Shown in pieces: positions 1-60,371 of a DNA stretch of 64,000 nt. Numbering within the stretch: the stretch's first letter is position 1; every line of letters starts with the position of its first letter. The notes under the pieces were generated by a model. That model saw only the letters and a list, made by a program, of their open reading frames with translations, was not told the origin of the DNA and did no database searches. The DNA is from Gammaproteobacteria bacterium. GTDB taxonomy: Bacteria; Pseudomonadota; Gammaproteobacteria; SZUA-152. Where the stretch lies: positions 27,420-91,419 of the forward strand of contig DROS01000062.1 of the NCBI GenBank assembly GCA_011321815.1. Reading direction: 5' to 3'. A program made the translations under genes and the position numbers.

Positions 1-792
1 ATGGCCTGTAGCCATTGTCACAACCTCAACGACAATGGCGCCGACCATCATGCCCATGCGCCAGGGCGTGATGGCACTACTTTAAACGTCAATACCCTGA
101 CTGTTTTCAATAGTGGTTTTAATCATCAACAATTCTGGGATGGCCACGCCCGCACTTTGGAGGAGCAGGTTGATGCCGTGGTCACCAATGCCAAAGAATT
201 TGCCACCACCTGGCCAACAATCATTGGTAAACTGAAACAGGACAAAAGCTATGTCCGCAGTTTTACGAAGCTGTACCCCGATGGCATTACAGCAGACAAC
301 ATCCGTAATGCCATCGCCACCTTTGAGCGCAGCCTGACAACCATCAATTCACCCTTTGACCGTTTTTTACGGGGTGATGCCGATGCCATCAGCCCGGAGG
401 CAAAAGCAGGTTACCGCCTGTTCAAAACCTATGGCTGCGTCGCCTGCCATCAAGGCAGTAACGTGGGCGGCAATCTGTTCGTAAAGCTCGGAGTTTTCAA
501 AGACTATTTTGCCATACGCGGCAACCCCACTCGTGCAGACCTGGGGCGTTTCAATGTCACCGGCAAGGCACAGGATCGCCATGTCTTCCGCGTACCCAGC
601 CTGCGGCTCGCTGCACTCACTCCCCCCTATTTTCATGATGGCAGCGTCACAACACTGGCGGAAGCTGTGAGCTTAATGGCTGAACACCAACTGGGACGTA
701 CAATTCCGGGTCAGGATATCCTGCGCATCGTCACCTTTCTGAAAACCCTGCCGGGTGAATATCGCGGGCAGCCACTGGGACACCAGCCATGA
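1..792 (+). CDS. di-heme cytochrome c peroxidase (CCP/MauG family), 5'-truncated by the window edge
   Basis: Two CxxCH heme motifs (CSHCH at the window start, CVACH mid-protein). Length and C-terminal conservation are typical of bacterial CCP. The stop overlaps the start of the downstream kinase (ATGA). Confidence 0.7.
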   Translation: MACSHCHNLNDNGADHHAHAPGRDGTTLNVNTLTVFNSGFNHQQFWDGHARTLEEQVDAVVTNAKEFATTWPTIIGKLKQDKSYVRSFTKLYPDGITADNIRNAIATFERSLTTINSPFDRFLRGDADAISPEAKAGYRLFKTYGCVACHQGSNVGGNLFVKLGVFKDYFAIRGNPTRADLGRFNVTGKAQDRHVFRVPSLRLAALTPPYFHDGSVTTLAEAVSLMAEHQLGRTIPGQDILRIVTFLKTLPGEYRGQPLGHQP

Positions 793-3700
793 ACAGAAAC
801 TGGATCAAGTTTTTTGTGCTGGGGCTGGGTGCACTACTGCTCATGTCCTTTCTTTACATCAAGACCCAGGCCGTTGACCTTGACAAACATAATCAGGTCA
901 TCAGCCACGCCAACCAGTTCAAGCGAGTGGATGCCATTCTTAACCAGCACATCCTGGAAATACGCCAGGGCCTGCTGCCCTATTACGACCCCACTGTTCA
1001 CAACATAACTGAACTCAAAGAACATCTGGATGCCACCACTGTGATGGCAATGCAGTTGTATCCCGTGCTTCCGGGCAATATCGCACAGCACCTGCAAACA
1101 ACCACCCAGGCACTGGCACAAAAACGAGAGCTGCTTGAAAATTTCAAATCCAGCAATGCGATATTGCGCAACTCACTGCGTTATCTGCCCATCGCAGTCA
1201 CCCGCTTCAATGATCAGCTGCCTTCCAGTGCCACAGCCAACAAACTGAAACAAACCCTGAACACCCTGTTGCGTGATACGCTGGTCAGCAATCTCAACAG
1301 TGATATACCATTCAGTCCCACATTGTTATCCCGTAGTAAAGCACTGAAAACCGCACTAGCCTTTCAGGCGCCTGAATTGCAACAGGAACTGGATGTATTA
1401 CTCGCCCACGTGCGCATTGTGCTCGACAACAAGACACAAACCGATGAGCAAGTGCGGCAATTGCTCATCCTGCCCACAGCGCAAAACATGGATGCTCTGC
1501 TTGTCGCTTATGGTGTCGAGTACGATAAAGTAGTCCAGAGCGCCAATAATTACCGCCTGGCCTTGTACGGACTTTCGCTGCTTTTACTGGTTTACATTGC
1601 AGGTATCCTGCTTCAGCTCAACCGGACCGCTGCCACCCTGCGCCATGCCATTACCGATCTGAACTACCAGAAATTTGCCCTGGATCAGCATGCCATTGTC
1701 AGCATCACTGATCAAAACGGCACCATTACCTACGCCAATCAAAAATTTTGCGATATCAGCCAATATCCAGCAGCAGAACTCATTGGTCAGAATCACCGTA
1801 TTGTAAAATCTGATTACCATCCGCCCGAATTTTTCAAACAATTATGGGACACCATTACCCAAGGCAATGTCTGGCACGGACAAATACAAAACCAGGCCAG
1901 CGACGGCAGCCGCTACTGGACCGACACCACTATCGTGCCGTTCATGGATAACCAGAACAAACCCTATCAATACATTGCCATTCGCACCGACATCAGCGCC
2001 ATAAAACAAACCAAACAGTCCCTGCAACGTCTGAACCGTTCATTGCAAGCGCTCAGTGCCTGCAATGAAAGTCTGGTAAAAGCCACAGACGAAGCAACAT
2101 TGCTACGCAGCATTTGCAACGTTATCGTAAAAGATGCCGGTTATCACCTTGCCTGGGTTGGTTATGCCGGACACGATAAGGAAAAAACCATTCGCCCCGC
2201 AGCACAAGCAGGTTTTGAGCACAATTACCTCGACACTCTGAACCTGACCTGGAGTGACGATATTCAAGGAAGAGGTCCCACTGGCACAGCCATCCGCAAT
2301 GGTGAACTCAACATTATTCGCAATATCACAAATGACTCGCGCTTCACCCCCTGGCGTGATGCCGCAGTAAGATGCGGCTATCGTTCTTCCATTGCACTAC
2401 CACTCAAGGAAAAAAACCAGACCTTTGGCGCACTTAATATTTATGCCAGTGAGGCAGATGCCTTCGATGACGATGAAGTGAAATTTCTACAGGAACTGGC
2501 CCGTAACCTTGCCTATGGCATTACCACCCTGCGTTCATATGAAGAGCGTGAGCTGTTGCAAAAACAACTGCAACACGCTCAAAAAATGGAAGCCATTGGT
2601 CAGCTCTCCGGTGGTATTGCGCATGATTTTAATAATCAGCTCAGCGTCGTCATCGGCTATCTGGATTTTCTGCGCGAGCATTTGAAAGGCACAGGGCAAC
2701 CACAACAATGGGTGGAAATCGCCGCCCGCTCCAGCCTGCGCTGCATTAACCTGACCCGGCAATTACTGGCCTTTTCCCGTCATCAGCTCCGGGAAAAAAC
2801 CGTGGTCAACCTCAATACCACGATCAAAGAAATGAAAACCATGATAGAACGCTCGCTGACCCCGGAAGTCGAAGTACAGTATTTCCTCAACGACGCCCCA
2901 TGGCTGACAGAGATTGACCCTAACGAATTTCAGGATGCCTTACTGAACATGGTCATCAACGCACGGGATGCCATGCCAGCAGGAGGCAAACTGCTGATTG
3001 AAACCAGCAATAAATATCTGGATAACGACTATGTTGCTCTCAACCCCTGGCTTGAGGCGGGTGACTATGTGCAATTGATACTGACTGATACCGGCACCGG
3101 TATGAACAAAGAAACCCTGGAACATGTTTTCGAGCCCTTCTTCACCACCAAACCCAAAAGCAAAGGCACAGGCCTGGGCATGTCCATGGTCTATGGCTTT
3201 GCCAAACGTTACCGTGGCCATATCAAACTCTATTCAGAACCCGGTGTCGGCACCACCATACGCCTGTATCTGCCGCGTACCCACGCCACCAAACCCGCTA
3301 TTGGCGCCCAGGATGCTCGGCCGGCACCACTGGCCACGGGTAACGAATCCATCCTTATCGTTGACGATGAAGTTGATCTGTTGCAACTGGCCGACCAATA
3401 TTTGAAATCACTGGGCTATCGCACACAACAGGCGGAAAACGCCGCACAGGCACTGGAAATCCTCAAAGCCGATAACAACATCGACCTACTGTTCAGTGAT
3501 GTGGTAATGCCCGGAGGCATGAACGGCTACGAACTCGCGCAACAAGCCACGCAACTGGCCCGCTCGCGCAACCTCCCCGAACCCAAAGTGTTACTGACAT
3601 CGGGCTTTACGTCCAAAACCATGGCGCACAATGGCCTCGCCCGGTTTTCCGCCCATTTGCTCAGCAAACCCTATCGCAAACACGACCTGGCCCAACGTAT

Positions 3701-4163
3701 CCGGCTGATACTGGATGAAAAAAAGGTGGATGAAAAAAAAGAAGGTACTGCTCACCGGCAGCAAGCAAGCAGCCCGACGGACACACTTTCCGGCCTCAAC
3801 ATTCTGGTGGTCGACGATGACCAGGACATGCAAAAACTGTTTCAACTCAACCTGGAAAAACTGGGCTGCAACGCTATTCTTGCAGATGATGCTGACAATG
3901 CCATCAGCCTCTATCAAGAATCACTGCACAACAAACAGCCCATTGATATCGCGATCCTCGACCTCACCCTTCCTGGCGGCATAGGTGGCGTTGAAATCGC
4001 CAGCAAATTAAAATCCATAAATTCACAAATAAAAATCATTGTCGCCAGCGGCTACACAGACGGCCCTGAAATGACCCAATACAAAAGATACGGTTTTCAG
4101 GCCGCACTGGAAAAAAACTCCAGCCGGGAAAAAATCCGCCAGGTGCTGGAATGTGTATTGTAG
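789..4163 (+). CDS. hybrid sensor histidine kinase (TM, PAS, GAF, HisKA, HATPase_c, two receiver domains)
   Basis: N-terminal hydrophobic segment. PAS-like SITDQNGTITYANQKF. H-box GGIAHDFNNQLSVV. G-boxes DTGTGM and GTGLGMSMV. Two DD..D receiver cores (ILIVDDEVD and ILVVDDDQD). Translationally coupled to the upstream CCP gene. Confidence 0.85.
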   Translation: MNRNWIKFFVLGLGALLLMSFLYIKTQAVDLDKHNQVISHANQFKRVDAILNQHILEIRQGLLPYYDPTVHNITELKEHLDATTVMAMQLYPVLPGNIAQHLQTTTQALAQKRELLENFKSSNAILRNSLRYLPIAVTRFNDQLPSSATANKLKQTLNTLLRDTLVSNLNSDIPFSPTLLSRSKALKTALAFQAPELQQELDVLLAHVRIVLDNKTQTDEQVRQLLILPTAQNMDALLVAYGVEYDKVVQSANNYRLALYGLSLLLLVYIAGILLQLNRTAATLRHAITDLNYQKFALDQHAIVSITDQNGTITYANQKFCDISQYPAAELIGQNHRIVKSDYHPPEFFKQLWDTITQGNVWHGQIQNQASDGSRYWTDTTIVPFMDNQNKPYQYIAIRTDISAIKQTKQSLQRLNRSLQALSACNESLVKATDEATLLRSICNVIVKDAGYHLAWVGYAGHDKEKTIRPAAQAGFEHNYLDTLNLTWSDDIQGRGPTGTAIRNGELNIIRNITNDSRFTPWRDAAVRCGYRSSIALPLKEKNQTFGALNIYASEADAFDDDEVKFLQELARNLAYGITTLRSYEERELLQKQLQHAQKMEAIGQLSGGIAHDFNNQLSVVIGYLDFLREHLKGTGQPQQWVEIAARSSLRCINLTRQLLAFSRHQLREKTVVNLNTTIKEMKTMIERSLTPEVEVQYFLNDAPWLTEIDPNEFQDALLNMVINARDAMPAGGKLLIETSNKYLDNDYVALNPWLEAGDYVQLILTDTGTGMNKETLEHVFEPFFTTKPKSKGTGLGMSMVYGFAKRYRGHIKLYSEPGVGTTIRLYLPRTHATKPAIGAQDARPAPLATGNESILIVDDEVDLLQLADQYLKSLGYRTQQAENAAQALEILKADNNIDLLFSDVVMPGGMNGYELAQQATQLARSRNLPEPKVLLTSGFTSKTMAHNGLARFSAHLLSKPYRKHDLAQRIRLILDEKKVDEKKEGTAHRQQASSPTDTLSGLNILVVDDDQDMQKLFQLNLEKLGCNAILADDADNAISLYQESLHNKQPIDIAILDLTLPGGIGGVEIASKLKSINSQIKIIVASGYTDGPEMTQYKRYGFQAALEKNSSREKIRQVLECVL

Positions 4164-4352
4164 ATATATTCAATCGTCATATTTTTGCGCACCAAAACCG
4201 GTGAACGGCGGTAACCGCCCCTAAAAAAATTAGTGGCCATAATGAATCTCTTTGGATATTCCGGCACAGGCTCCGCCGGAGTGGTGTTATTCATGTTGAC
4301 ACCCCCGCCAGCCCGCCTTAGCACCGGCTGTTGGCACTACGGGGTAGTTTAT

Positions 4353-5345
4353 TTAGCGTGACATGCTTATTTTTACGTCACTCACCGCTAACGCTTTTTT
4401 GTTACATGGCACAGCCGCTCTCCATGTCATGCTGAGCGTTAACTGGTTCGGTTCAATAACCAATGTTTCCAAATTGAATTGAGGAGAAAGTGAGTTGCCC
4501 ATTATGTTTACATCTGCATGTAACTGAATAAAAGGCAGTTCAAAATTGACAGTGCCACCGGGGTGCATATGGGTAATCTCTACAGACTCTCCACCCTTAA
4601 GAAAACCGGGATAAATCAAATCCGGATGCGCCATACTAAAAAAACGCTTGTCGAAATCCACAGGCAAATAGGGTGCCCGCTGAGCTTGCCAGGCTTCATC
4701 ATAAGTACCGGAAAAACCGGAACGGGGTAACCAGTGCGGACAGACAAACCCAAAACCGGCCGGCATGGGTCGCTGCCCGGTACGGACAATCAGGTTATCC
4801 GGATCTTCCAGATTGGGAAGCGGTATATCATTCATTTCAGATGACTTGCGTTTCCCGGCAAAACCACAGCCAACCGGATTTCGTACTTCTGTTTCCACAA
4901 TCTGTCCATCGACAATGTGCGCCCCGCCAAAAGCCTTTTCATAAACCATGGCCATGGTCCGGAAAGGTTGCGGAGACGAAATCCGTCCATCCTGCCAACA
5001 ACGATCACCAAAGACACGCACCGTTTTATGCACTTTTCCCACTGTCAGGCGGACATCCAACTGGCGCACATCCTTTCCGCCAGGGGCAAAGGCATGACCG
5101 AGCATGATAATGTCACTGCTTAATTTACCAATGTGGTAATCAGAAGCCTGTTTGATACTGGATTCACCCGGCTCACCCCAGTATTCATCACCTTCCAGCG
5201 GCGGTAATTGTTCATCGGCCAGGGTCCATTGCTTACCGATGATAAACGTGGCTTTAACTAACAAATAGAGTGTATCAATGGCCTCTTCATTGGGGAACAG
5301 AGCCATATTGGCGGCGAAAGGTGTGCGGTTATGAAGTTGTAACAT
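4353..5345 (-). CDS. DUF2169-family protein (T6SS VgrG-associated adaptor family); start assigned at internal Met (MLQLHNRTPF)
   Basis: N-terminal NRTPFAA...VKATF signature as remembered for DUF2169. Position immediately downstream of vgrG. The ORF track extends to 5411, but that would overlap the upstream gene. Confidence 0.55.
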   Translation of the reverse strand: MLQLHNRTPFAANMALFPNEEAIDTLYLLVKATFIIGKQWTLADEQLPPLEGDEYWGEPGESSIKQASDYHIGKLSSDIIMLGHAFAPGGKDVRQLDVRLTVGKVHKTVRVFGDRCWQDGRISSPQPFRTMAMVYEKAFGGAHIVDGQIVETEVRNPVGCGFAGKRKSSEMNDIPLPNLEDPDNLIVRTGQRPMPAGFGFVCPHWLPRSGFSGTYDEAWQAQRAPYLPVDFDKRFFSMAHPDLIYPGFLKGGESVEITHMHPGGTVNFELPFIQLHADVNIMGNSLSPQFNLETLVIEPNQLTLSMTWRAAVPCNKKALAVSDVKISMSR

Positions 5346-5370
5346 AAGCGATACGGTAACAGAACCAGTC

Positions 5371-5904
5371 CTAGTTGAGCCGTATCGAACCACCCAGAAT
5401 CCGGTTGACACCGGTTGAGCGCGTTAATAAATTTTTTCCACGGATTAAAATTTTTCCATCACGGGTTAAAATGATGCTTGACTCACCGCATTTCAGGACA
5501 ATTTTCTCTTTGGCCTCAAAAACAATTTTACTGCCGTCAACCATAACGTCATCAACTTTCAGATGCTCTTCCTGCCCGCTTTCAACGGCAACTTCTTCCT
5601 GTCCAAAGTTTTCCAGCATCTCTTGCAAAGGGCTACGGATCATCCCCATGATTACCGGATTTTGCAGATTACCACCTGCAAACAGCAGGGCAACTTGCCG
5701 ACCAATATGTGACCGGGCAAGCTCGAGCGTTGTTATCGCTTTTAATGAATGATCAGATGGATTACCGGAAAATTCGACAAAAGGGTTCCCCAGTTTATCA
5801 ATTGAAACCAAGGTCCCGAGAATAACTTCACCCGGCGCGACAGACAATAACGCAGGCGATGTCTCCTCGACGGGTTGAACTATATATGATTTTTCATCTT
5901 TCAT
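5371..5904 (-). CDS. small hypothetical protein (177 aa) with VgrG/gp5-like C-terminal beta-helix-type segment
   Basis: The C-terminal motif KIVLKCGESSIILTRDGKILIRGKNLL mirrors the VgrG C-terminus in this window (KIVMKNNGDITLSGKTINIKGSGNVVIKG). Lies between vgrG and DUF2169, with a 16 nt gap after vgrG. Confidence 0.5.
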   Translation of the reverse strand: MKDEKSYIVQPVEETSPALLSVAPGEVILGTLVSIDKLGNPFVEFSGNPSDHSLKAITTLELARSHIGRQVALLFAGGNLQNPVIMGMIRSPLQEMLENFGQEEVAVESGQEEHLKVDDVMVDGSKIVFEAKEKIVLKCGESSIILTRDGKILIRGKNLLTRSTGVNRILGGSIRLN

Positions 5905-5920
5905 GATAAATCATTATTCA

Positions 5921-7900
5921 CTAATTGGTAATGACCTTACTTCCTTTAATCACCACATTACCCGATCCCTTGATGTTAATTGTTTTGCCACTCAGAGTGA
6001 TATCACCATTATTCTTCATCACAATTTTTGCGGCCCCGGTTTGAATAATAATTTCATCATCAGCATTCATAGTGATGGTTTTTGCACGCAAGCCATAGTC
6101 TTTTGTGACATCCTCCAGATACTTACCACGAACAGACTCTTTAAGATCCTTGGCAACCGTGATCGTCATGTTGGCCTGGACGGTTTCTTTATGGTCTTTG
6201 CCAACTTCGATGGTTTTGTTGTTTTTTATGGTTTCTGTGTGGTCGTTGCCAACATCAATGGTTTTATTGTTTTTTATCGTTTCCGTCTGATTATTATTAA
6301 CTGTTTTGTTACGATCATTCTCTATTGTTGAGTTTTCATCATTTTTGACAACTTTAGTACGGTCATTATCAACCGTTAAAGTCTCATCATTTTCAACCAT
6401 TGTATCCAGGTTTTTTTCAGCATGGATATAAACCTGTTCCGAGCCTTTTTTATCTTCAAAACGCAGCTCGTTATAATTTGCTGATGTACCACTTTTGGTT
6501 GAATGAGTTTTGATACCGCTTTGTGTTTTTGAGCTATAAGGAGGCTTATTGACGCCATTATAAACCGTTCCGGTCACAATCGGCCGATCAGGATCGCCAT
6601 CAAGAAAAGTGACAATCACTTCGTGGCCAATGCGGGGAATAAAGGACGTTCCCCACCCATTGCCTGCCCAGGTTTGCATCACCCGCAAGAAACAGGAGCT
6701 GTTCTCATCATTTTTCCCTTCGCGATCCCAGATAAACTGGACTTTGATACGGCCAAATTCGTCAATGTAGATTTCTTCACCCGCCGGGCCTGTAACCATT
6801 GCCGACTGTGGCCCTTTCATCACAGGGCGACGATGACCTTGACTGGGACGAAAATGCACGTCAGATGGAATACATTCAAAAGTATTTGCATAACCTGTTG
6901 TGCCACTTGCATCTGCAAAATAGCTGGCATCAGAAGCATGATGCCCAACTTCCACCAAAACATAACCGCCTTGTTCGCTTGCGGCATCGTGTTTATCCAG
7001 ATTGAACAACCCACCGGCAAAAAAGGTGCTACAGTTACTCGCCCCGGCAATTATATTCATGGGCACTTCTTCTGCTTCCATCCGGATTTTAATCAGTTCA
7101 GCACCTGCATCAACATCATACATGCCAGGGTATGCGTAATTTTGAAACTTACCATTATTGGCAAACTTACTTTTTGATTTTGTTTCAACGATTAAATTTT
7201 TAGTGGGCTCTTTAAAATTGTAATCATTTAAAGCCCAGCCACCTTTTCTGAACTCATATTTATGTTCCCATTTCAGAATTTGTTGGTCAGGGGTCGAGCC
7301 TTTTGAATAAGTTAGATTTGTTTCAGCACATTCATTATAAGCATTCGCTTTGTCAACAATAATCAGCGTATGTTTACTTTCTTCGTGGGCAAAATAATAA
7401 GCGTAGCCTTCTTCTTCCAGTAGCCGTGAAACAAATTGCAGATCGCTTTCATCATATTGAACACAATATTCTCTTGGCGCACCACCAGCCGCCCTGAAAT
7501 CAAAATCAGTAAAACCCAGGTCAGCAAACACCTGGCTGACAATATCTTTTGTGTTTTTATTTTGAAAAATACGGCGGTTTTCAGTTTTGGTAAGAAACCA
7601 AAGCCATGGCACCATAACCAACCCATATTCACGAAAGCTGCTGGATGTGATTTCACCAAACGAAAACTGACTTACAACGCCATGAAAAATCCGGCCATGT
7701 TCATTTTGTATTTTAACGGTAATTTGCTTACCGATAAGTTCTTCCGGCTTAATGTCAAGATTTAGAGATAACGCCGTCAGGTAAAACTCAAAGGAAGATG
7801 ATATAGATTCCGTACCATCAAACTTAGTGAGTAAAAGCACGTCTTTGCCCAACGGCGTATCAACCGCGATAAGACGATTATCTTGGGTAAAATCATTCAT
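5921..7900 (-). CDS. vgrG: type VI secretion system spike protein VgrG
   Basis: N-terminal gpD/gp27-like region and gp5-like OB region (VMVPWLWFLTKTE, FIPRIGHEVIVTFLDGDPDRPIVTGTVYNG). C-terminal repetitive beta-helix octapeptide-like repeats. AT-rich. Confidence 0.85.
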   Translation of the reverse strand: MNDFTQDNRLIAVDTPLGKDVLLLTKFDGTESISSSFEFYLTALSLNLDIKPEELIGKQITVKIQNEHGRIFHGVVSQFSFGEITSSSFREYGLVMVPWLWFLTKTENRRIFQNKNTKDIVSQVFADLGFTDFDFRAAGGAPREYCVQYDESDLQFVSRLLEEEGYAYYFAHEESKHTLIIVDKANAYNECAETNLTYSKGSTPDQQILKWEHKYEFRKGGWALNDYNFKEPTKNLIVETKSKSKFANNGKFQNYAYPGMYDVDAGAELIKIRMEAEEVPMNIIAGASNCSTFFAGGLFNLDKHDAASEQGGYVLVEVGHHASDASYFADASGTTGYANTFECIPSDVHFRPSQGHRRPVMKGPQSAMVTGPAGEEIYIDEFGRIKVQFIWDREGKNDENSSCFLRVMQTWAGNGWGTSFIPRIGHEVIVTFLDGDPDRPIVTGTVYNGVNKPPYSSKTQSGIKTHSTKSGTSANYNELRFEDKKGSEQVYIHAEKNLDTMVENDETLTVDNDRTKVVKNDENSTIENDRNKTVNNNQTETIKNNKTIDVGNDHTETIKNNKTIEVGKDHKETVQANMTITVAKDLKESVRGKYLEDVTKDYGLRAKTITMNADDEIIIQTGAAKIVMKNNGDITLSGKTINIKGSGNVVIKGSKVITN

Positions 7901-8251
7901 TAAAATCCCCTAACCCGGAGGCCGACTACATATATAATCTTATACAATTACTTACAATCCAAATTGTCAAGCCAAACACTTTCTTCAGTATCAGTTAAAG
8001 TTGGAGGTATAGTTTTTACACAGACAATTGTATTTTCATTTACCACGCCCAGACATGAGTACATTGTCCATATTATTTTGTCGGATTCAGTTGGCCTGTC
8101 AGTGCTCATGGTAAAACACCACTGCAATGCTGAACCCGTCAAATATTAACGGGCTGATGTGCTGGCTTGGCCTCCTTTGAAATCCATATCAACAGGAAAA
8201 TGTTGTATGCGTAGTGAATTTATATGGAAGCAAAATATGACACAGCAACAG

Positions 8252-8281
8252 TTAATGCTGCTCACAAGTGAGCAGCATTAA
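8252..8281 (-). terminator. rho-independent terminator downstream of hcp
   Basis: Perfect 14 bp inverted repeat TTAATGCTGCTCAC..GTGAGCAGCATTAA, 14 nt after the hcp stop, followed on the minus strand by a U-rich stretch. Confidence 0.6.
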
Positions 8282-8294
8282 CGTCGGTGGTTCT

Positions 8295-8777
8295 TTATAA
8301 CGGTATGGCTTTTGCCAGATCGTAACCAGCACGTTGCGGATTACCCGTTTTGTTGGTTGCGTCGTGATCTTTGTAATTGATCTCACATTTGGAAAAGCTC
8401 AGCATGATTGTTTCCACAGGCTCCGCATCACCGGAGGCCGAAATTTGGTAACTGCTTACCAGACAGTTTTCCAGTGAGTATTCCATAAACTCTTCAACAC
8501 TATCGCTACCGGTGCGGGTAAACTTAAGCACCGCCGTTTTACCGGATGAGCCAGAAACTGACTCTTTGAACAATGCAGCAACAGAATTATCGGCTTCTTT
8601 CGTTAAAGTCACTTCAGAAATATTGGGTTTGCCGACTTCACGGTTAGCCATTTTACCGGCTTCCATAGTGATTGGGCGTGACACACCAAACTCGACAGAA
8701 CTGATTTTGACACATTCTTCAAAACCTTCGGCCGTCACATTCCCCTTAATTCCATCATAATCAAGATATATCGCCAT
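8295..8777 (-). CDS. hcp: type VI secretion system tube protein Hcp (start at MAIYLDY; GGAGAG RBS upstream)
   Basis: About 160 aa Hcp1-family sequence (MAIYLDYDGIKG...KFTRTGSD...EINYKDHDATNKTGN). A GGAGAGAGG Shine-Dalgarno sits 8-12 nt upstream of the internal ATG. Confidence 0.85.
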   Translation of the reverse strand: MAIYLDYDGIKGNVTAEGFEECVKISSVEFGVSRPITMEAGKMANREVGKPNISEVTLTKEADNSVAALFKESVSGSSGKTAVLKFTRTGSDSVEEFMEYSLENCLVSSYQISASGDAEPVETIMLSFSKCEINYKDHDATNKTGNPQRAGYDLAKAIPL

Positions 8778-9315
8778 TTTTACTTTCCTCTCTCCATCCT
8801 GTTTAAACAAAAAATACCCGTAAATCGACTTGCAATAATAGGGTAGTTGTTAGCGCTGGACAACCAATATTCTGTTGCAAACCGCATGTTTTCAAGCGTT
8901 TATACTGAGTCGCCTAACATAGTTTATCATTTTGTGCTCTGCCCATCTCGTCTTCTCGCCAAACCGAACATGACCCTGAGCAATCCTGGCATTTTAGAAC
9001 GAGTATACATACCCTTTCCAGCAGCGACACGCATGATACCGCTTCATTGTAATGAAGTTTCCGAATATTTATGTGACATATTCACACAAGGCTGTATTTT
9101 TCTTTATTTTCAACTAGAACAATGGGTTAAATTGCATTTTATGGCCAACTCGCCACTACACACACGCTCAATGTTGGAAAAACGGTCGCTATTTGTTAAC
9201 CAAACGCATTCGATATACCGTTTCTGCTCAGGTGACGTGAATGTAAATGGGTGGTTTTTACAGTACCGCCGTCAGGCAAACCTAAACACAAACTGAACGG
9301 CAGCGGCGCATTTGC

Positions 9316-11205
9316 TCAAAAACTGTACTGCATATCAAACAACAATCTTTTATTATCTATTTCGGGTTGCCCGGTAATGCCAGTAAACTGATCAAGGACT
9401 TTGAAACCCAATTGTAAATTTCCACTGAATTTATAGCCATACGAAAACTGCAACCCGATACCCACATCAGCCAATTGTCCAGTGGGGTCTTTTTCGCCAG
9501 ACTCAAGTGCGTACTGTTTGCCATAGGCATAATCGAAAAAGACAAAAGGCTTGGCAAACGATTTCAAATTCACTGGACCTATTTGGACATCGAATATATC
9601 GGGACTGTTAAACACCCAGTCGGTGCCCAGATACAGCGCATCATCCGCAGTAAACAAACTGGGCGAAAACCCCCGCACCCGCGTTGGCCCGGCCAAAGAA
9701 AACCGTGCGATTGCAGACAGGTTGGTCCCGGAATACTGGAGATTCGAGCGAAAAATAAGCCGCGAAGTGCTTTCCGTAAACGGAACCTGCAAAAAAGTTA
9801 ACAACGTGTAATCGACGGAAAAAATATTGTAGTTTTCATCCTGGTTATTTTTCTTCTGACCCTTTCTATCCGCGAGTTTACCCCGTGTATATTTAATGCT
9901 TCCTTCATGCAGGCGCTTGTTGACGCCATCCAGGTAGTCGAGATTATACTTAATGGAAAAGTGCCTTAATTCATTGGCATCACTAGAAGATTTACCAATC
10001 TGCACATCAGATTGTATTGTTTCAGAGCGCAGTTCATAACTGCTGTTTTCTGTCCGCCCACGTTTTTGTATGTATTTTCCATAGATACTCAGAACATCCA
10101 CTTGGCCACTCAGATCAAAATTTGAAGGGATGGTTTGATCCACGACAAATTGATTTTGCGATGATTCAATACCGGCCCGGAAACGCGGACTAAAAAAATT
10201 ACTCTCAAATGCCAGCTGCCAATATGTGGTATTGCTGGGTGATGTTGCCTGCAATACACCGATTTTCGTATAGTCGGCAATACCTAATAAATTATTCGCC
10301 TGAAAATCTGCATAAAACCGGTATAAACCGGATTCATCGGTGCCATGGTTATCTGCTCTGAGATTGGCATTGTAACGGGATTCATTTTTAACATTAATGT
10401 TCAGCCGGGTATCGCCGACCTGATAGCCCGGTTCAAAATAACCATCCACATTAATTCCCGGAAAGCTGTTGATGATAAACAGGTTTTCCTCGACCGTTTT
10501 ATTGGTGACTGGCTTTGTTAAAAGGTCTGCAAAAACCGAGCGCAATAGCTCCGCATCGTACATATCGTTATTTTTTATCGAAACTTCCCCCAATATTCCC
10601 AGCAACAATGTCAGACTGACCACGCCATCCCGCACACGTTGTTTGGGAATAAAGGCCTTGGCAAGAATAAAACCACGCTCCCGGTAAAAATTGGTGATTT
10701 CGCTTGCGACGGCTTCGATTTGCCCCAGCGTAACACCCCGTTTGCCGCGTTGCTCCCTGATCAGCCAGACCAGTTTTTGGACTTCAAGTGGAGAAACATG
10801 CCGCTCCAGCGTTTCCTCCTCAATCTCAACGAGAAGATTCGATATTTCACCCAGCTCATCAATGGTATAACCGGATTCAAGCAGTTTGTCCTCTTTCATA
10901 ATGGCAAAGCGAATATTTTCAACCAATTGGGTTAATGCCTCACGGGTGATACCCAACTCCGGAAACTCAACCAAGCCTTGAATTCTGAACTCCGAGACGG
11001 CAAGCCTTGGCCCGGCAGAAGGGTCCGGCGAGCGTTCACGCACGGTGGGCACATCCAGATCCCGCAGCAGCGTTTTTTCTTCCACGTCTCCAAATTGCTC
11101 AACCTCTGGCATTTCCAAAAAGCCTGCTGCTGCAATCGAACTGTAAACGCTGATAATAATAAATATTAACGCATTGATTTTTTTAACTATTACACTAACC
11201 ATCAT
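9316..11205 (-). CDS. TpsB-type outer-membrane transporter (ShlB/FhaC/HecB family, two-partner-secretion or CdiB-like)
   Basis: Signal peptide. POTRA-like segment ITNFYRERGFILAKAFIPKQRVRDGVVSLTLLLGILGEVSIKNN. Long beta-barrel region with alternating hydrophobic pattern ending in terminal F. No TpsA partner is detectable adjacent. Confidence 0.7.
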   Translation of the reverse strand: MMVSVIVKKINALIFIIISVYSSIAAAGFLEMPEVEQFGDVEEKTLLRDLDVPTVRERSPDPSAGPRLAVSEFRIQGLVEFPELGITREALTQLVENIRFAIMKEDKLLESGYTIDELGEISNLLVEIEEETLERHVSPLEVQKLVWLIREQRGKRGVTLGQIEAVASEITNFYRERGFILAKAFIPKQRVRDGVVSLTLLLGILGEVSIKNNDMYDAELLRSVFADLLTKPVTNKTVEENLFIINSFPGINVDGYFEPGYQVGDTRLNINVKNESRYNANLRADNHGTDESGLYRFYADFQANNLLGIADYTKIGVLQATSPSNTTYWQLAFESNFFSPRFRAGIESSQNQFVVDQTIPSNFDLSGQVDVLSIYGKYIQKRGRTENSSYELRSETIQSDVQIGKSSSDANELRHFSIKYNLDYLDGVNKRLHEGSIKYTRGKLADRKGQKKNNQDENYNIFSVDYTLLTFLQVPFTESTSRLIFRSNLQYSGTNLSAIARFSLAGPTRVRGFSPSLFTADDALYLGTDWVFNSPDIFDVQIGPVNLKSFAKPFVFFDYAYGKQYALESGEKDPTGQLADVGIGLQFSYGYKFSGNLQLGFKVLDQFTGITGQPEIDNKRLLFDMQYSF

Positions 11206-12107
11206 TGTCCATTTTTGATCTAAATTGCACTGCCGGTAATAAGGGCGTATTAAGCGCAGTTATATTTTTAATGTCAGATTTTTTACAAACGGAGAGGGCG
11301 AACTTATGTATTGCGATGCAGCCAAAACATACATGCCAAATATTATTTTAATAATTTACCATTCCCAGCATGCATGCCAGCGATTTTTGGTGTAGCAGTC
11401 CCTGAATTTTCCGCTACAGGAAATCACCCGACAATTACCTTACGGCCTGCCCGTCTTCTTTATCACCCTTGTTGCTATAATGCTGGCCGCCCAGTAGCAG
11501 TAGAGGTAGCGCCATTATAATTGTAGTTTCTGGCTTCAGCAAAAATGGCCTGACCAAATTCACTCAGACTTTCAAATTAATGCGGTGCCAGCGCGATAGT
11601 CCGGTAAACCCCAGGATAACCAGTAGTCGCAAGTTTCTACAGATGATGACATTATCTGGTCTGCCTGCGCATCACCGGCAGAAATAATACCATTTGATTC
11701 AATCAGGGTTACACAACTTGTGTCACTCAACGAATCATCTATTTTTATAAAAAACCAAATTATGGCCTCAACATAGGCATTTTGTTGGTATTCATTATCA
11801 TGTTATTCAAGTGGAAAAGTCCTAATGGTCAGCGAATTCTCACCATTAACAATCGATTCAGAAACTGGTTTTTGTGGTGACGTTCGCCCTCTTGTATCAG
11901 ATATTAAATTCCAGAGAGAACATGGGTTGTTTATAACCGACATCCGCAAGCGAAGCATTTATAAATAACATTCCAGTTAGTAAAATAAAAAATACACTTT
12001 TTTTATTTTAGTGTTTCACTCTGTAGTGTTTTGCAGATTATTGCTTCTCATCATTTTCATTCGGCTTAAGCCAGCTCCAACGCTTTTCTTTTTTTGCCTT
12101 GATTTCC

Positions 12108-12401
12108 TCATAACTTGGTCAAAGTAACATCAGCCCCCTTAAACTCTACTGTATTCGGGAAATAGATACCTTTATCGTCATTGCCAAATTCATATACGGG
12201 TAACGGAGCCAGGGAAATCACGGAGCCCGGAATATCAACCTGAATATCGATATCCAACAGTGGTTTCGCGGTTAGTTTTATGCGGCAGTCATGTTCAACG
12301 TAGTTAGTGGTGGTAACGGCGTCGAAAACGATCCTGAATGATATTGGCGTGCATGCACGTATCTTTTTACCGATGCCCGCAATATTAACCAATAATTGCA
12401 T
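12108..12401 (-). CDS. hypothetical small protein (97 aa)
   Basis: ORF only. No recognisable motif. Lies between the ORF-free AT-rich region and tRNA-Pro. Confidence 0.25.
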   Translation of the reverse strand: MQLLVNIAGIGKKIRACTPISFRIVFDAVTTTNYVEHDCRIKLTAKPLLDIDIQVDIPGSVISLAPLPVYEFGNDDKGIYFPNTVEFKGADVTLTKL

Positions 12402-12505
12402 TAATCGCTAACATGGATTGTGGACACTTGCGACAGCATACGCGCATCAGTCAGGCTAGGGACAACACCCTGCCGGGGGTATCCGGAGGATGAAAACGAA
12501 GGGAA

Positions 12506-12584
<79 letters not shown>

Positions 12585-49939: not shown

Positions 49940-52672
49940 TTATCTTAAACCCGGTGGTTCCCCGCAAGTTTGTAATAAATATTTTGCGGTAAAATCTACC
50001 TCGTGCTCGATTTCGCGCACCAAATCGGCAAAATTTTCTGCAAAACCATTTTTTCTGGCCCGGTCAACAAGCGCATCACACATTTCCGATAGCTTCCGGG
50101 CACCGAGATTGGCGCTACTCCCCTTTAATGAATGAGCAGAAAACTCAATGTTATCCACATCAAGATCTTGAATGGCGATGCGCAACTCATCGAGCCGCTT
50201 GTCAGCACCATCAATAAATAACAGGACAATCTCGGCATACTGTTCTTCTGAAAGCACCGAAGCCAGGTCATTCAACAATTTAAAATCAAAATGTGTGGAT
50301 AAATTTACATCATCATCGTGAGCGCCCGTGAAACTGTCGTCCGTGACGGCAGGGCTAACCTCACTCTCGGCACCGCCACTGTCGATTTTGAACCTGGAAA
50401 AAACGTCACGCAGTGCTTTTATGCGTATGGGCTTGACCAAAAAATCGTCCATCCCTGAAGACAAACAGGCCTCACGGCCTGTATCCAGCGCATTTGCAGT
50501 CAGTGCAATAATCGGCGTGCGTTCCAGATTTTTTTCATACTCCAGGTTTCGCATCTTCATCGTGGCTTCAAACCCATCCATGACCGGCATCTGACAATCC
50601 ATTAAAACCACGTGATATTTCTTCGACTGAAATAACAAAAATGCCTGTAAACCATCATCAGCAACATCAACGCTATAGCCTTGCTTTTGCAGCAGTGCCA
50701 CCGAAATCTGTTGGTTTATCGCATTGTCCTCAACTAAAAGTACTGTCGTAACATCATTCTGCATTGAAGGGTATTGACATGTATCACCTCTATCGCCGGC
50801 GCCCCCCCTGTCCCGCAATAATGAAAAAATCTCAAACAATGCCGCACGCCGAAGCGGACGGCTTATACTCTCATCAAGTTGAAAAGTCCTGACCTTGTCT
50901 GTGCTATTGCTGTCCGAGAGCCGGAAAAGCCCGATATATTTTTTGGCGGCAACGACTTTTTTTCGTAAATTACAGGCATCAGTGATATTGCAGTCCAGCA
51001 ATGCATCAATATCCAGTATGGCAAAATCAGCTGAAGGAACGTCCTGGCCGGCAAAAGCATCACTCGTACAATCACTAGACTTCACCACGGTACAGCCCCA
51101 ATATTGAACAAGACTGGTTATTGCCTCCCGAACAACAGCACTTGGCACAAAAATATAAACGCTTAAGCCATGAAAATATCCCTTTTCCCGATGATTTACC
51201 GCTCTTCCCGAAGGGGCAAGCTTAACGGTAAACCAAAATGTACTGCCAATTCCTTCTATAGAATCAACCCCCATTTGCCCATCAAATAATTTCACCATTT
51301 GTTGACAGATTGACAACCCCAGACCAGTCCCACCATATTTCCGGGTGGTGGATTCATCGGCCTGCGTAAAAGTATTAAATATTAATTTTTTAGCGGAATC
51401 AGAAATACCAACACCGGTATCACGTATGATAAATTTAAGAAATCCACCCTCCTCTGAGGAGTAATTTTTATCGCATTCCAAGCCAATAAATATTTCACCG
51501 TTATCAGTGAATTTCATGGCATTACCAATCAGGTTGTTTAAAATCTGCCGTAATCTGGTCGGGTCACCAAGCACGTAGTCAGGAACATCATTATCAATAT
51601 GACAAATAACCTCGACACCCTTGTCCTGTATTTTTTTGGCGTATAGACCGACCACTTCCTCAAGCAAATGCCGCACATCAAAGGGAATAGACTCAAATTC
51701 AATTTTCCCTGCTTCAATTTTCGAGAAATCCAATACATCATTGATTACGGACAACAACGCTTCTGCCGAATTATAAGCCGTATCAACAAAATATTTTTGC
51801 TCAGAAACCAAACGGGTATCACGCAATAAATCCAACATACCCAATACCCCGGTCATAGGCGTCCGAATCTCATGACTCATATTGGCAAGAAAAGTTGATT
51901 TTGCTTTTGTTGAATCCTCGGCCTGCGAATACGCCAACGATAATTCGGTATTTTTTGCACTTAATTCCTGGCTCTTCTTTTTTACGTTCTGTGTTACTGC
52001 CCGCGCAATAGCAACACCTACCACCAGCGTAAAAACGCCTAGCAAAAGCAGCATCAGCCAAATAAACTGATAGTCATTTCTATTGCTTTGTACAGCGGTA
52101 TCAGTATATTGCTGCTGCAAATCGATTAATCCATCCAAAGTATCAAGCAATATTTTTTGTGCCTCAAGGCCTTCAGTTACCGCAACAGAGATAACATTAT
52201 CCGGTGTTTCCTGCATCAACAGCTCAGCAACCTTGCGGTTCTTCAGCTGTGCCTCATTTGCCGCCATTTCCAGGTGTTTATAAATTTCCTGTTCTTTTTC
52301 ATTTGCACCCAACTTAACCAGCTCTTCCCTGCGACTGCGATAATCACCAGCATATGAATAAAAACGTAACAGTTCCGCGTCACGGGAAAAATAATCATCC
52401 ATTGCCAACATTGTGTAAATGCTGATCGCTCTTTGCAGAATGGCATCGCGCATGGCAAAAGCCAATGCAACCTTTTTATTATGTACATCAACAATAGCCT
52501 CCATATTGGAATTAAATTCGTTTAACCGATACAAGCTCACTGAGGTAACCAGCAAAACAAGAACCAATATGGCGCTAAACCCCATACCCACCACATTTGA
52601 CAAACGACTATATTCTGTACGTTTTTTTTGCTTCTGATGAAAACGTTGCCACGGCGCTCGCATTACCGCCAC
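49940..52672 (-). CDS. hybrid sensor histidine kinase (periplasmic sensor, HisKA, HATPase_c, REC, Hpt)
   Basis: H-box [12 protein letters not shown]-boxes. Receiver [12 protein letters not shown]…[13 protein letters not shown]-terminal Hpt [11 protein letters not shown]. Confidence 0.85.
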
Positions 52673-57956: not shown

Positions 57957-60371
57957 ATGGTATTTGAGTTGCGTTCATTGCCCAAAAAAATGGCTCAATT
58001 CTCTCAAAACAAACAGGTTAATAATGCCAAGCCGCTTATCATGGTGGGGTTTTCCACCATATTGATACTGATGATTTTATTGATTGGGTTTTGGAGCAAA
58101 AGCCTTTCTGATAATAAAAATCTGCTATTCAGCATGGCAAATATAACGCTTGAAAGCGGATTGATTACAAAACTGTTCAACACAGTGCATCAACAAACAA
58201 CTGTACTGCACCAGATAAATACGGCACAAAACGCTAAAAAGAAAAAAGACTATTACGATCAATATCTGGCCTTTGGAGAAATATTATCCGATACCTATGC
58301 ACAGCTGGCTGAATTTGAATTTACCGATGATGCCGCACAATCCTGGGATTTAATACAACAACAATTATCGCAATGTCGCAATATTGAAAAGGTATCCAGA
58401 AATTTTTATCTGAGTGGGGAGCATGAAAAGTCTTTCGAATACCTGACAGACAATATTTCACCAATACAGGGTCGTTTGATGAATGAATTGTCGACCCTGC
58501 TCAATAAAAATCTGTTAAATGGCAGCGAAAGTAATGTCGATGACATTATCAATGAAGCAACACACAAAATTTCCACCACCTATTTTTTTGTTTATTTATT
58601 AGGCGGAATCTCCATTTTTCTCGGTATTTTTACTATTTATATCCTCAAGCGTAAAGAAAGCACCGAGGAGGCACTGGTTGATCAGGGCGAGAGAATTCAA
58701 TGGTTATATGAAGCAACATCAATATCCGGCATCAGCCTTGATGATCGCATTACCGAAACCCTGAAGTTAGGTTGCCGCGTACTGGGTATGGAAGTCGGGA
58801 AACTGGGCCGCCAGTTTCCCGAAAAAAATGAATCGGTATTCCTGAACACTGTTGCTCCTCCCGAACTTCCTGCAAAACGTGGATTGGTTCTCCCTCTTGA
58901 TAAAACGTTTTGCAATATTACTTTTTCAACAGATGGGCCAATTGCCATACAACACGTCAGCAAGTCCTCTTATCAGGATCACCCTGCCGCTGAATTTCTT
59001 GGTATGGAGGCCTATATTGGCACCACCATCTATGTGCACGATAAAAAATTCGGGACCGTTAATTTTTCCAACAGACAACCCATGGAAAAGCCCTTTACAC
59101 AAACGGACATGGATTTTGTCAACCTGTTGGGAAAATGGATCAGCGTGACCATGGAGCAGATTATTATCGAGGATGAGTTACAGCAATCCAAGGATGAGGC
59201 AGAAGCGGCAAACCATGCAAAAACTGCTTTTCTGGCAAACATGAGTCATGAAATCCGCACACCACTAACAGCAATTCTGGGTTATTCTGAAATGCTGTTG
59301 GATGATGATCAATCGCAGGAAGAAATCGAACATGAAATTGATTCCATCGTTACCAGCGGTAAACATCTACAGCAAATTATCAACGATATTCTCGATTTAT
59401 CAAAAATTGAAGCCGGACAGCTCATCGTTGAACACCGGGAGGTTTCTCCCATTCTTTTCATGAATGAACTTGATGCCATTCTGGGCTCACAAGTAAGTGA
59501 AAAAGGCTTAACATTTGACATGGAATACCAGTTCCCTATTCCTGGAATGATTAGCACAGACCCTACCCGTTTAAAACAGATTCTCATCAATCTCTGCAGC
59601 AATGCCATAAAGTTTACCAAGGAAGGCAGCATTGGTATTTCCGTCCAATATCTTGCGGATTCGAATCAATTACAAATCAGCGTTACCGATACCGGCATTG
59701 GCATCTCTGAGGAAGAGCAGAAAAAGATTTTTCGCCCCTTTACTCAGGCCGATGACTCGACGACACGCATTTACGGTGGAAGTGGGCTTGGTTTATGTAT
59801 TTCCAGACAATTGGCCAAAACGCTGGGCGGTGATATTACTGTGTCCAGCGAAAAAGGAAAAGGCAGCAAATTTACCACAACCATTGATGTCTGTATTGCG
59901 CAAGACAAGCTGGAAATGATTCATGAAGCCCCCGTTAAAGAAACCCTTCTTAATACCAAACCGGCCCATATCCATTTGAATGGGCACGTATTATTGGTGG
60001 AAGACAACAGCGAAAACCAACAACTCATTACAAAATTGATTCGTCAAACCGGTCTGACCGTCGAAATTGCTGAAAATGGAAAAATTGGTGTGGAAAAAGC
60101 GCTATCCGGCAACTACAACCTTGTACTGATGGATATGCAAATGCCCGTAATGAGCGGTTTGGAGGCCATACAAAAATTGCGCGGCAGCGGGTATAAAATA
60201 CCTATCATCAGTCTGACGGCCAATGCCATACAGGAAGATAAAACCAGTTGCTGCGCTGCCGGTGCGAATGACTATCTCACAAAACCTCTGGATTTCAGTC
60301 ATTTTTATACGGTACTTTCTGCTCACCTGGCTACCGGTAAACAGCAAAATTCAAACAATTCCGTAACTTGA
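57957..60371 (+). CDS. hybrid sensor histidine kinase (TM, GAF, HisKA, HATPase_c, REC)
   Basis: H-box [12 protein letters not shown]-boxes. Receiver VLLVEDNSENQQ…VLMDMQMPVMSG. Confidence 0.85.
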   Translation: MVFELRSLPKKMAQFSQNKQVNNAKPLIMVGFSTILILMILLIGFWSKSLSDNKNLLFSMANITLESGLITKLFNTVHQQTTVLHQINTAQNAKKKKDYYDQYLAFGEILSDTYAQLAEFEFTDDAAQSWDLIQQQLSQCRNIEKVSRNFYLSGEHEKSFEYLTDNISPIQGRLMNELSTLLNKNLLNGSESNVDDIINEATHKISTTYFFVYLLGGISIFLGIFTIYILKRKESTEEALVDQGERIQWLYEATSISGISLDDRITETLKLGCRVLGMEVGKLGRQFPEKNESVFLNTVAPPELPAKRGLVLPLDKTFCNITFSTDGPIAIQHVSKSSYQDHPAAEFLGMEAYIGTTIYVHDKKFGTVNFSNRQPMEKPFTQTDMDFVNLLGKWISVTMEQIIIEDELQQSKDEAEAANHAKTAFLANMSHEIRTPLTAILGYSEMLLDDDQSQEEIEHEIDSIVTSGKHLQQIINDILDLSKIEAGQLIVEHREVSPILFMNELDAILGSQVSEKGLTFDMEYQFPIPGMISTDPTRLKQILINLCSNAIKFTKEGSIGISVQYLADSNQLQISVTDTGIGISEEEQKKIFRPFTQADDSTTRIYGGSGLGLCISRQLAKTLGGDITVSSEKGKGSKFTTTIDVCIAQDKLEMIHEAPVKETLLNTKPAHIHLNGHVLLVEDNSENQQLITKLIRQTGLTVEIAENGKIGVEKALSGNYNLVLMDMQMPVMSGLEAIQKLRGSGYKIPIISLTANAIQEDKTSCCAAGANDYLTKPLDFSHFYTVLSAHLATGKQQNSNNSVT

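Follow-up and report, generated by a model that had tools for sequence, protein, structure and literature searches.

A DUF6484-family (short TvpC) protein encoded beside vgrG, a probable stand-in for the VgrG tip in a truncated gammaproteobacterial cluster

Why does a type VI secretion system (T6SS) cluster encode, directly past its spike gene vgrG, a second and smaller protein that ends in the same terminal rungs? The question is raised by an open reading frame (ORF) of 177 amino acids (aa) in a 64,000-nucleotide stretch of DNA from a gammaproteobacterium (assembly GCA_011321815.1, contig DROS01000062.1, positions 27,420 to 91,419; hereafter the window). The ORF lies on the minus strand between vgrG and a gene for a DUF2169 protein, exactly where a previous reading of the letters (the sequence-only reading) had placed it, with an ATG at 5904 and a stop codon at 5371-5373. 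That reading had proposed that the protein stacks onto the tip of the VgrG trimer. We found that it is a member of a known family of T6SS accessory proteins, DUF6484 or short TvpC, and not a new protein. We consider it probable (about 0.62) that it acts as a stand-in for VgrG, i.e. as a stub spike on which a PAAR-like tip of the PIPY type would be assembled before the stub is swapped for VgrG; its partners would come from elsewhere in the genome, or the module would have been orphaned. The protein and its VgrG counterpart comprise the following features.

5371..5904, minus strand: tvpC-like gene, DUF6484 family (short TvpC), 177 aa (ORF; Pfam PF20093)
5635..5826, minus strand: OB-fold domain, residues ~27-90, kin of the OB fold of VgrG, gp5 and gpV
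5590..5631, minus strand: conserved helix SPLQEMLENF (residues 92-105 in the AlphaFold2 model), then a variable acidic linker (~104-116)
5374..5559, minus strand: C-terminal beta-prism rungs, residues 116-177 (hhalign, register test), likely docking platform for a PAAR-like tip
5921..7900, minus strand: vgrG, 659 aa, with gp27-like hub, OB fold and beta-prism and without C-terminal extension (Pfam Phage_GPD, Phage_base_V, Gp5_trimer_C; TIGR03361, E 1.6e-182)
5924..6109, minus strand: terminal rungs of VgrG, residues 598-659, counterpart of the TvpC tail (hhalign)

Residues 29-89 of TvpC match the Pfam family PF20093 (DUF6484) over the full profile (positions 1-61) with a score of 66.9 bits (cut-off 27.6, E 2.7e-18), and the window VgrG matches the same profile at its own OB domain. 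Sub-threshold matches of TvpC were obtained with DUF2345, a C-terminal region of VgrG, and with the OB domain Phage_base_V (PF04717; 14.5 bits, below the 23.8 cut-off). No match was detected at E<=1 with DUF3540, PAAR (PF05488) or Tox-PAAR-like (PF13665), and NCBIfam holds no family for this ORF or for the DUF2169 protein, which is a single-domain protein of 330 aa. The lack of any PAAR or PAAR-like match bears out the statement of the sequence-only reading that the protein is not a classical PAAR tip. The same statement had also denied it a cysteine pattern, which needs some qualification: Cys139, within the motif K-C-G-E-S (window 5488-5490), is invariant in all 48 aligned family members. 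The same C-G occurs in the terminal rungs of Salmonella VgrS and of P. protegens VgrG1, and the cognate VgrG clade here carries Thr at that position. A metal site at Cys139 was considered and found no support; the VgrS paper describes an anion held by Arg/Lys inside the prism and no metal by inductively coupled plasma mass spectrometry.

A search of a set of 5.8 billion proteins returned 610 homologues at E<=1e-3, all of about 180 aa, and an exhaustive search gave 4096 representatives at 50% identity. The best 150 of these 4096 are 101-270 aa long and their match reaches the last residue, which is that of the last rung. The closest solved folds of TvpC are the central spikes of contractile injection systems. 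Matches to mannuronan C5-epimerases in the PDB (E 0.006-0.03) were rejected as low-complexity or beta-helix noise and were gone when the family profile was used. In an AlphaFold2 monomer model built on an alignment of 48 family sequences, the OB fold (residues 28-88) has a predicted local distance difference test (pLDDT) score above 90 and is followed by a helix (92-105), by the acidic linker with pLDDT below 50 (104-116) and by beta strands with pLDDT 70-80 (120-155). P92 and L93 are conserved in the family alignment and the length of the linker varies. The protein has the features of its family, an OB fold and after it a beta-prism of the VgrG type that is very short, without the gp27 domain; of the parts that define VgrG (TssI), it retains no more than the OB fold and the last rungs.

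TvpC is homologous to VgrG in two parts. For the tail, a BLASTP comparison of the two window proteins aligned TvpC 47-173 with VgrG 551-654 (E 7e-4), and hhalign comparison of a profile of 48 family members with one of 35 cognate VgrGs paired TvpC 121-175 with VgrG 603-657 (probability 95%, E 3e-8). When the C-terminal part alone was compared, TvpC 116-177 aligned with VgrG 598-659, reaching the last residue of both proteins (E 1e-9). The solved Salmonella VgrS (PDB 9mlp) was also recognized, either by TvpC alone at its last rungs (E 0.0018) or by the family profile at residues 602-655 (E 2.4e-5). An ungapped comparison anchored on both C-termini at 76 loci scored +1.05 BLOSUM62 per residue, and all shifts of 1-6 residues gave negative scores. 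The last residue is an invariant Asn in both families. The resemblance of the tail to the terminal rungs of VgrG, which the sequence-only reading had noticed, is thus confirmed in a single, C-terminally anchored register. This homology is parallel and ends at both C-termini, indicating that the free end of TvpC is equivalent, and not complementary, to the VgrG tip. The second part is the OB fold, for which profile comparison of TvpC 27-95 with VgrG 368-452 gave a weak match (E 6e-4). If this match is accepted, TvpC would be colinear with a VgrG lacking the gp27 hub (1-367) and most of the prism (453-597).

Conservation within TvpC is highest in the tail, with a mean pairwise identity of 87% over the last 20 aa and 76% over the last 57 aa, for 50% over the whole protein. 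Its conservation is comparable to that of the PIPY protein (77%) and exceeds that of the VgrG tail (61-72%). No cognate-specific mimicry between the tails of TvpC and VgrG was detected, the mean being 59.6 for cognate and 59.8 for non-cognate pairs (permutation p 0.66). A tail as conserved as PIPY that does not co-vary with VgrG is what would be expected if it serves PIPY.

The neighbourhood was examined at 80 loci from species-representative genomes with crude ORF calls. These loci belong mostly to uncultured marine or sediment Gammaproteobacteria, plus Colwellia, Psychromonas, Cellvibrio and Kangiellaceae, and the best match to the window TvpC in this collection reaches only 65% identity. 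The vgrG gene lies directly upstream of tvpC at 73 of 76 evaluable loci, with a gap of typically 0-20 nt, and DUF2169 directly downstream at 71 of 78 evaluable ones. The co-occurrence with DUF2169 thus extends to other genomes, and homologues are almost never found outside this T6SS setting. The place directly past vgrG had been described as one where PAAR or effector genes normally lie; this is misleading, as it is the conserved slot of the DUF6484 family itself. Within 6 kb downstream, 51 of 56 loci encode a Tox-PAAR-like/DUF4150 (PIPY) protein of 127 aa, 51/56 a HEAT-repeat protein and 44/56 a thiolase-like protein; the PF13665 proteins of the relatives form a separate family of 127-aa genes. 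Further downstream are a Tle1-like lipase with DUF2931, or an AHH nuclease with Imm11 arrays. This layout corresponds exactly to the 'synteny type A' of Sachar et al. (PMC11883445) and to the 'Class II Tvp system' of Monlezun, Earl and Coulthurst (bioRxiv 10.64898/2026.02.23.707444). One locus (L017) carries tvpC-tvpA-PIPY-HEAT-thiolase followed by the effector (Tle1/DUF2931) and has no vgrG, so that tvpC moves there with tvpA and PIPY in the absence of vgrG, a point in favour of a surrogate tip.

In many relatives, arrays of repeated immunity-like genes were observed downstream of the Tvp genes (e.g. L005:13148-16782, L046, L076). As is typical of orphan-immunity islands, Tle1 is followed by as many as four copies of DUF2931, or AHH nucleases by several of Imm11.

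The mechanism that we propose would be as follows. TvpC would represent a VgrG without the gp27 hub and most of the prism, consisting of a disordered N-terminus, the OB fold, a short helix and linker, and about 60 residues of terminal rungs that end on the same Asn. Three copies would form a stub spike, with a blunt end that mimics the tip of VgrG. The DUF4150/PIPY cone, kept soluble by the DUF2169 protein (TvpA) and in most relatives also by the thiolase-like TvpD, would first be built on this stub as a cytoplasmic pre-complex. The unit of tip and chaperones would then be passed to the real VgrG, which would replace TvpC, and TvpC itself would not be fired. In the window, the hcp-vgrG-tvpC-tvpA cluster would either draw its PIPY tip from another place in the genome or be a recently orphaned module. 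We infer the trimer, the binding of PIPY and the exchange with VgrG from the family and from the literature. In Serratia, pull-downs with the DUF3540-type TvpC revealed mutually exclusive complexes of TvpC and of VgrG1 with the same partners (TvpAB, TvpB and Paar1); this TvpC is required for the VgrG1-Paar1 complex, and its predicted form is a trimer that combines OB fold and prism, without gp27 (bioRxiv 10.64898/2026.02.23.707444). According to the same preprint, the DUF6484 proteins PA0096 and VP1395 are short TvpC that combine an OB fold with a 28 A prism, modelled as bearing Tse7's PAAR domain on top; for DUF6484 proteins the same role is a prediction. In P. mirabilis, killing is lost upon transposon insertion in each of the genes of a cluster that contains DUF6484 (summarised in PMC11883445).

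Several points limit this surrogate-tip model. The pre-complex scheme comes from a different family (DUF3540) and from AlphaFold models presented in a preprint. The profile match between the two OB folds has a probability of 28%. The pLDDT of the monomer model falls below 50 for residues 160-177, a low confidence that would be expected for a prism folding only as a trimer. A concatenate of three TvpC copies, modelled by single-sequence AlphaFold2 with the disordered N-terminus as linker, was uninformative (pLDDT 35, predicted template modelling score 0.21). Finally, a tblastn search of the 64-kb window with the PIPY, HEAT, thiolase-like, Tle1, DUF2931, AHH and Imm11 proteins of the relatives found none of them. 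With PIPY, the client, and TvpD, the co-chaperone, both missing from 64 kb, the mechanism cannot run on local parts alone. The tip would therefore have to come from elsewhere in the genome, or the module was orphaned recently. The rest of the cluster is as follows.

8295..8777, minus strand: hcp, 160 aa from MAIYLDY... (Pfam T6SS_HCP, E 4e-33; 160-aa gene call on contig L081)
4353..5345, minus strand: tvpA (DUF2169), 330 aa from the ATG at 5345 (Pfam PF09937, E 1e-92)
4164..4352, no strand: end of the cluster, 189 nt from the tvpA stop to the stop of a convergent hybrid histidine kinase gene (789-4163, plus strand)

The gene order is hcp-vgrG-tvpC-tvpA. The tvpC gene starts 16 nt past the vgrG stop and ends about 25 nt ahead of MLQLHN... 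(5345), where DUF2169 is likely to start; in the ORF list tvpA reaches up to a GTG at 5411, and 330 aa were called on the near-identical contig L081. This independent metagenome contig encodes a 99%-identical TvpC (P0001), has an identical junction between tvpA and the kinase gene, and is likewise devoid of PIPY and TvpD. P0001 was found in three independent datasets (ENA, Logan and JGI); L081 is the one long contig among them and shows the same truncated layout. The genes that are retained look fully conserved and not decaying: Hcp, VgrG, TvpC, TvpA and TpsB, the transporter encoded upstream of hcp, deviate at 0-2 of the 45-177 positions that are at least 90% conserved; in TvpC these are two substitutions, V to I and V to L. 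The closest relative of the window VgrG (L012, 84% identity) has a disrupted PIPY/DUF4150 pseudogene past tvpA (L012:11099-11563) and nothing further. This locus and the vgrG-less L017, which has the full downstream set, are both from the metagenome-assembled genome (MAG) D96SM.bin.23, suggesting split or trans-acting modules. Since a MAG with a truncated locus holds a second locus with PIPY, a PIPY tip encoded elsewhere in the genome of the window organism is plausible.

The segment from about 4.35 to 12.5 kb (TpsB-hcp-vgrG-tvpC-tvpA) has a G+C content of 39-45%, compared with 48-55% in its flanks, and abuts the 3' side of a tRNA-Pro(GGG) gene (12507-12583, minus strand). This suggests that the segment (~4350-12500) is an acquired island. 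Copies of the tRNA-Pro end that might bound the island as att-like direct repeats were looked for, and only short matches at chance level appeared. The small island ORFs at 12108-12401, 8847-9296, 4097-4324 and 11311-11520 belong to no Pfam family, canonical PAAR (PF05488) not having been scanned systematically over every small ORF of the window. Just upstream of hcp lies an intact gene for a ShlB/FhaC-type TpsB transporter (9316-11205, minus strand), whose usual partner of about 1600 aa (TpsA) is cut to a 44-aa remnant detected by tblastn (11514-11645, minus strand). The remainder of the window is housekeeping (pheST, thrS, lysS, recJ and others).

On the stacking idea, the rung-like tail would attach TvpC to the tip of the VgrG trimer, and the protein would be fired together with the spike as its extension, cap or cargo adaptor. 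In its favour, the tail is truly a VgrG-type prism sequence and tvpC is translationally close to vgrG. As a PAAR or PIPY gene is missing nearby, another cap for this VgrG would also be conceivable. However, TvpC looks like a parallel, shortened copy whose free end corresponds to the VgrG free end, not like a part that attaches there, and the opposite end of TvpC is the OB-fold base, which in VgrG is seated on gp27 and not on the prism tip. The cognate tails do not co-vary, most relatives encode a dedicated PIPY cap close by, and VgrG1 was not co-purified with the analogous TvpC of Serratia (bioRxiv 10.64898/2026.02.23.707444). The exact register of the tail, its conservation, the lack of co-variation with VgrG and the vgrG-less locus all favour a surrogate tip over stacking, which we regard as very unlikely; the term cargo adaptor would apply to TvpC only loosely, in the sense of a tip assembly factor. 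Still less credit can be given to an autonomous mini-spike, a puncturing protein of the gpV/gp45 type that would replace the gp5 part on some gp27-only hub. TvpC has the size and fold order of the spikes of R2 pyocin (172 aa), P1 (Gp5, 207 aa) and Mu (gp45, 194 aa), but it ends flush with the rungs, with no apex or metal-binding domain past the prism, and its Phage_base_V score stays below threshold. Moreover, neither the window nor the conserved neighbourhood showed a gene for a gp27-only hub, and a complete VgrG accompanies tvpC at nearly all loci.

The truncation of the cluster bears on the remaining explanations. It could mean that tvpC is a functionless relic, not yet degraded, in a decaying island that has lost TpsA and the genes for tip and effector; the missing PIPY, HEAT, TvpD and effector genes, the TpsA remnant, the PIPY pseudogene of the closest relative and the low G+C content beside tRNA-Pro all go in this direction. 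Against decay stand the near-perfect conservation of the five retained proteins, the recovery of a 99%-identical TvpC from three datasets, with the same truncated layout on L081, and the second locus of the L012 MAG, which supplies PIPY and effectors and makes trans-complementation plausible. We consider a relic unlikely. A role of TvpC independent of PIPY, such as nucleating recruitment of the baseplate (TssK) for this VgrG, would explain why tvpC and tvpA are retained here without PIPY, and Serratia TvpC interacted with TssK in a two-hybrid assay (bioRxiv 10.64898/2026.02.23.707444). This is, however, a single two-hybrid result in a different family (DUF3540), and the strongest conservation of the DUF6484 proteins lies in the tip-equivalent tail and not in the OB base, making such a role improbable. 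A broader version is that DUF6484 TvpC and TvpA form a generic platform acting in trans for PIPY tips encoded anywhere in the genome, or have a second, PIPY-independent job, for example in the entry of VgrG into the baseplate. A tail that is nearly invariant across genera and shows no VgrG-specific co-variation fits a generic platform; we hold this broader version to be unlikely.

The window protein can be set beside several known systems. Its nearest counterparts are the short TvpC of Class II Tvp systems (PA0096 of P. aeruginosa, VP1395 of V. parahaemolyticus, and 'synteny type A' clusters including the pef operon of P. mirabilis), which belong to the same Pfam family, have about 180 aa, an OB fold and a very short prism, and share the slot between vgrG and DUF2169. 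The relatives of the window cluster carry, as these systems do, a PAAR-like DUF4150 protein, a thiolase-like TvpD (PRK06147) and a HEAT/ARM protein, whereas the window cluster stops after DUF2169, without PIPY, TvpD, HEAT or effector; this is a feature of the system, and the protein is still within the family. Apart from the missing tip and toxin genes, the find is an ordinary one. In contrast to Tse7, the PIPY protein of this marine gammaproteobacterial clade is not fused to a toxin but stands alone (127 aa), followed by the cargo effectors (Tle1 or AHH). The window VgrG, with its 659 aa, is shorter than the usual 700-800 aa given in the preprint (bioRxiv 10.64898/2026.02.23.707444). The only TvpC tested experimentally is the long, Class III type (DUF3540) of Serratia marcescens Db10, for which the same logic is proposed: a trimeric mimic of OB fold and prism without gp27 that carries Paar-TvpA before VgrG does. 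It belongs to a different Pfam family, its prism measures 81 A as compared with about 28 A in PA0096, and it works with the pentapeptide-repeat proteins TvpAB and TvpB, none of which is encoded in the window.

The OB fold and terminal rungs of TvpC are homologous to those of VgrG and the C-terminal part of T4 gp5, with an identical order and terminal Asn, but TvpC lacks the gp27/gpD hub (Phage_GPD) and the long Gp5_C repeats; it therefore cannot sit on Hcp. The small spikes of phages and tailocins of the P2 gpV type (R2 pyocin, 4s37; Mu gp45; P1 Gp5) are of similar length, have the same order of OB fold and beta-helix and are among the best structural matches. These are structural parts of particles with a sharpened apex domain, whereas the DUF6484 family ends in a blunt prism and matches Phage_base_V only below threshold. 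PAAR and DUF4150 PIPY tips are encoded in the same clusters and act at the spike tip, but have no kinship with TvpC in sequence or fold; on the best-supported model TvpC would support the cone from below and not form it.

Some further observations concern the genes around tvpC. Within VgrG, at residues ~537-572 (window ~6185-6292, minus strand), a rung unit of 16 residues is duplicated almost perfectly (NDHTETIKNNKTIDVG / KDHKETV...), a repeat that is mirrored on the opposite strand by repetitive, spurious ORFs (5903-6331 and 6105-6290). A terminator-like hairpin lies at 8242-8261 (minus strand), directly past hcp and ahead of vgrG; it may be an attenuator letting hcp be expressed above the downstream genes. 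Apart from this hairpin, a promoter and terminator scan around the operon gave nothing above the shuffled expectation. In the relatives, the ~1600-aa protein and TpsB precede hcp-vgrG at 42 and 53 of the 80 loci, respectively (e.g. L003:87-7111), and Pfam finds only DUF5649 repeats in the former. A two-partner-secretion pair thus goes consistently with this T6SS auxiliary module. The gene converging on the T6SS module (789-4163, plus strand) encodes an 1124-aa hybrid sensor kinase with DAHL, PAS, GAF, HisKA and HATPase domains, among others; its sequence also suggests two receiver domains. Ahead of it lies a gene for a MauG-like di-haem cytochrome c peroxidase (1-792, plus strand), and two more hybrid kinases are encoded at 49940-52672 and 57957-60371.

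By itself the finding matters little: an unannotated gene is now named and has a likely role, and the idea of its product stacking on VgrG is corrected. For the family, the exact C-terminal register with a shared Asn over 76 loci, together with a tail conservation that tracks that of PIPY, provides independent support, at the level of sequence, for the prediction made in the preprint that DUF6484 proteins are surrogate VgrG tips. The window cluster is a natural instance in which tvpC and tvpA are retained without the tip that they are thought to serve. Naturally truncated clusters such as this one, and the pair of loci L012 and L017, offer test cases for TvpC and TvpA working in trans.
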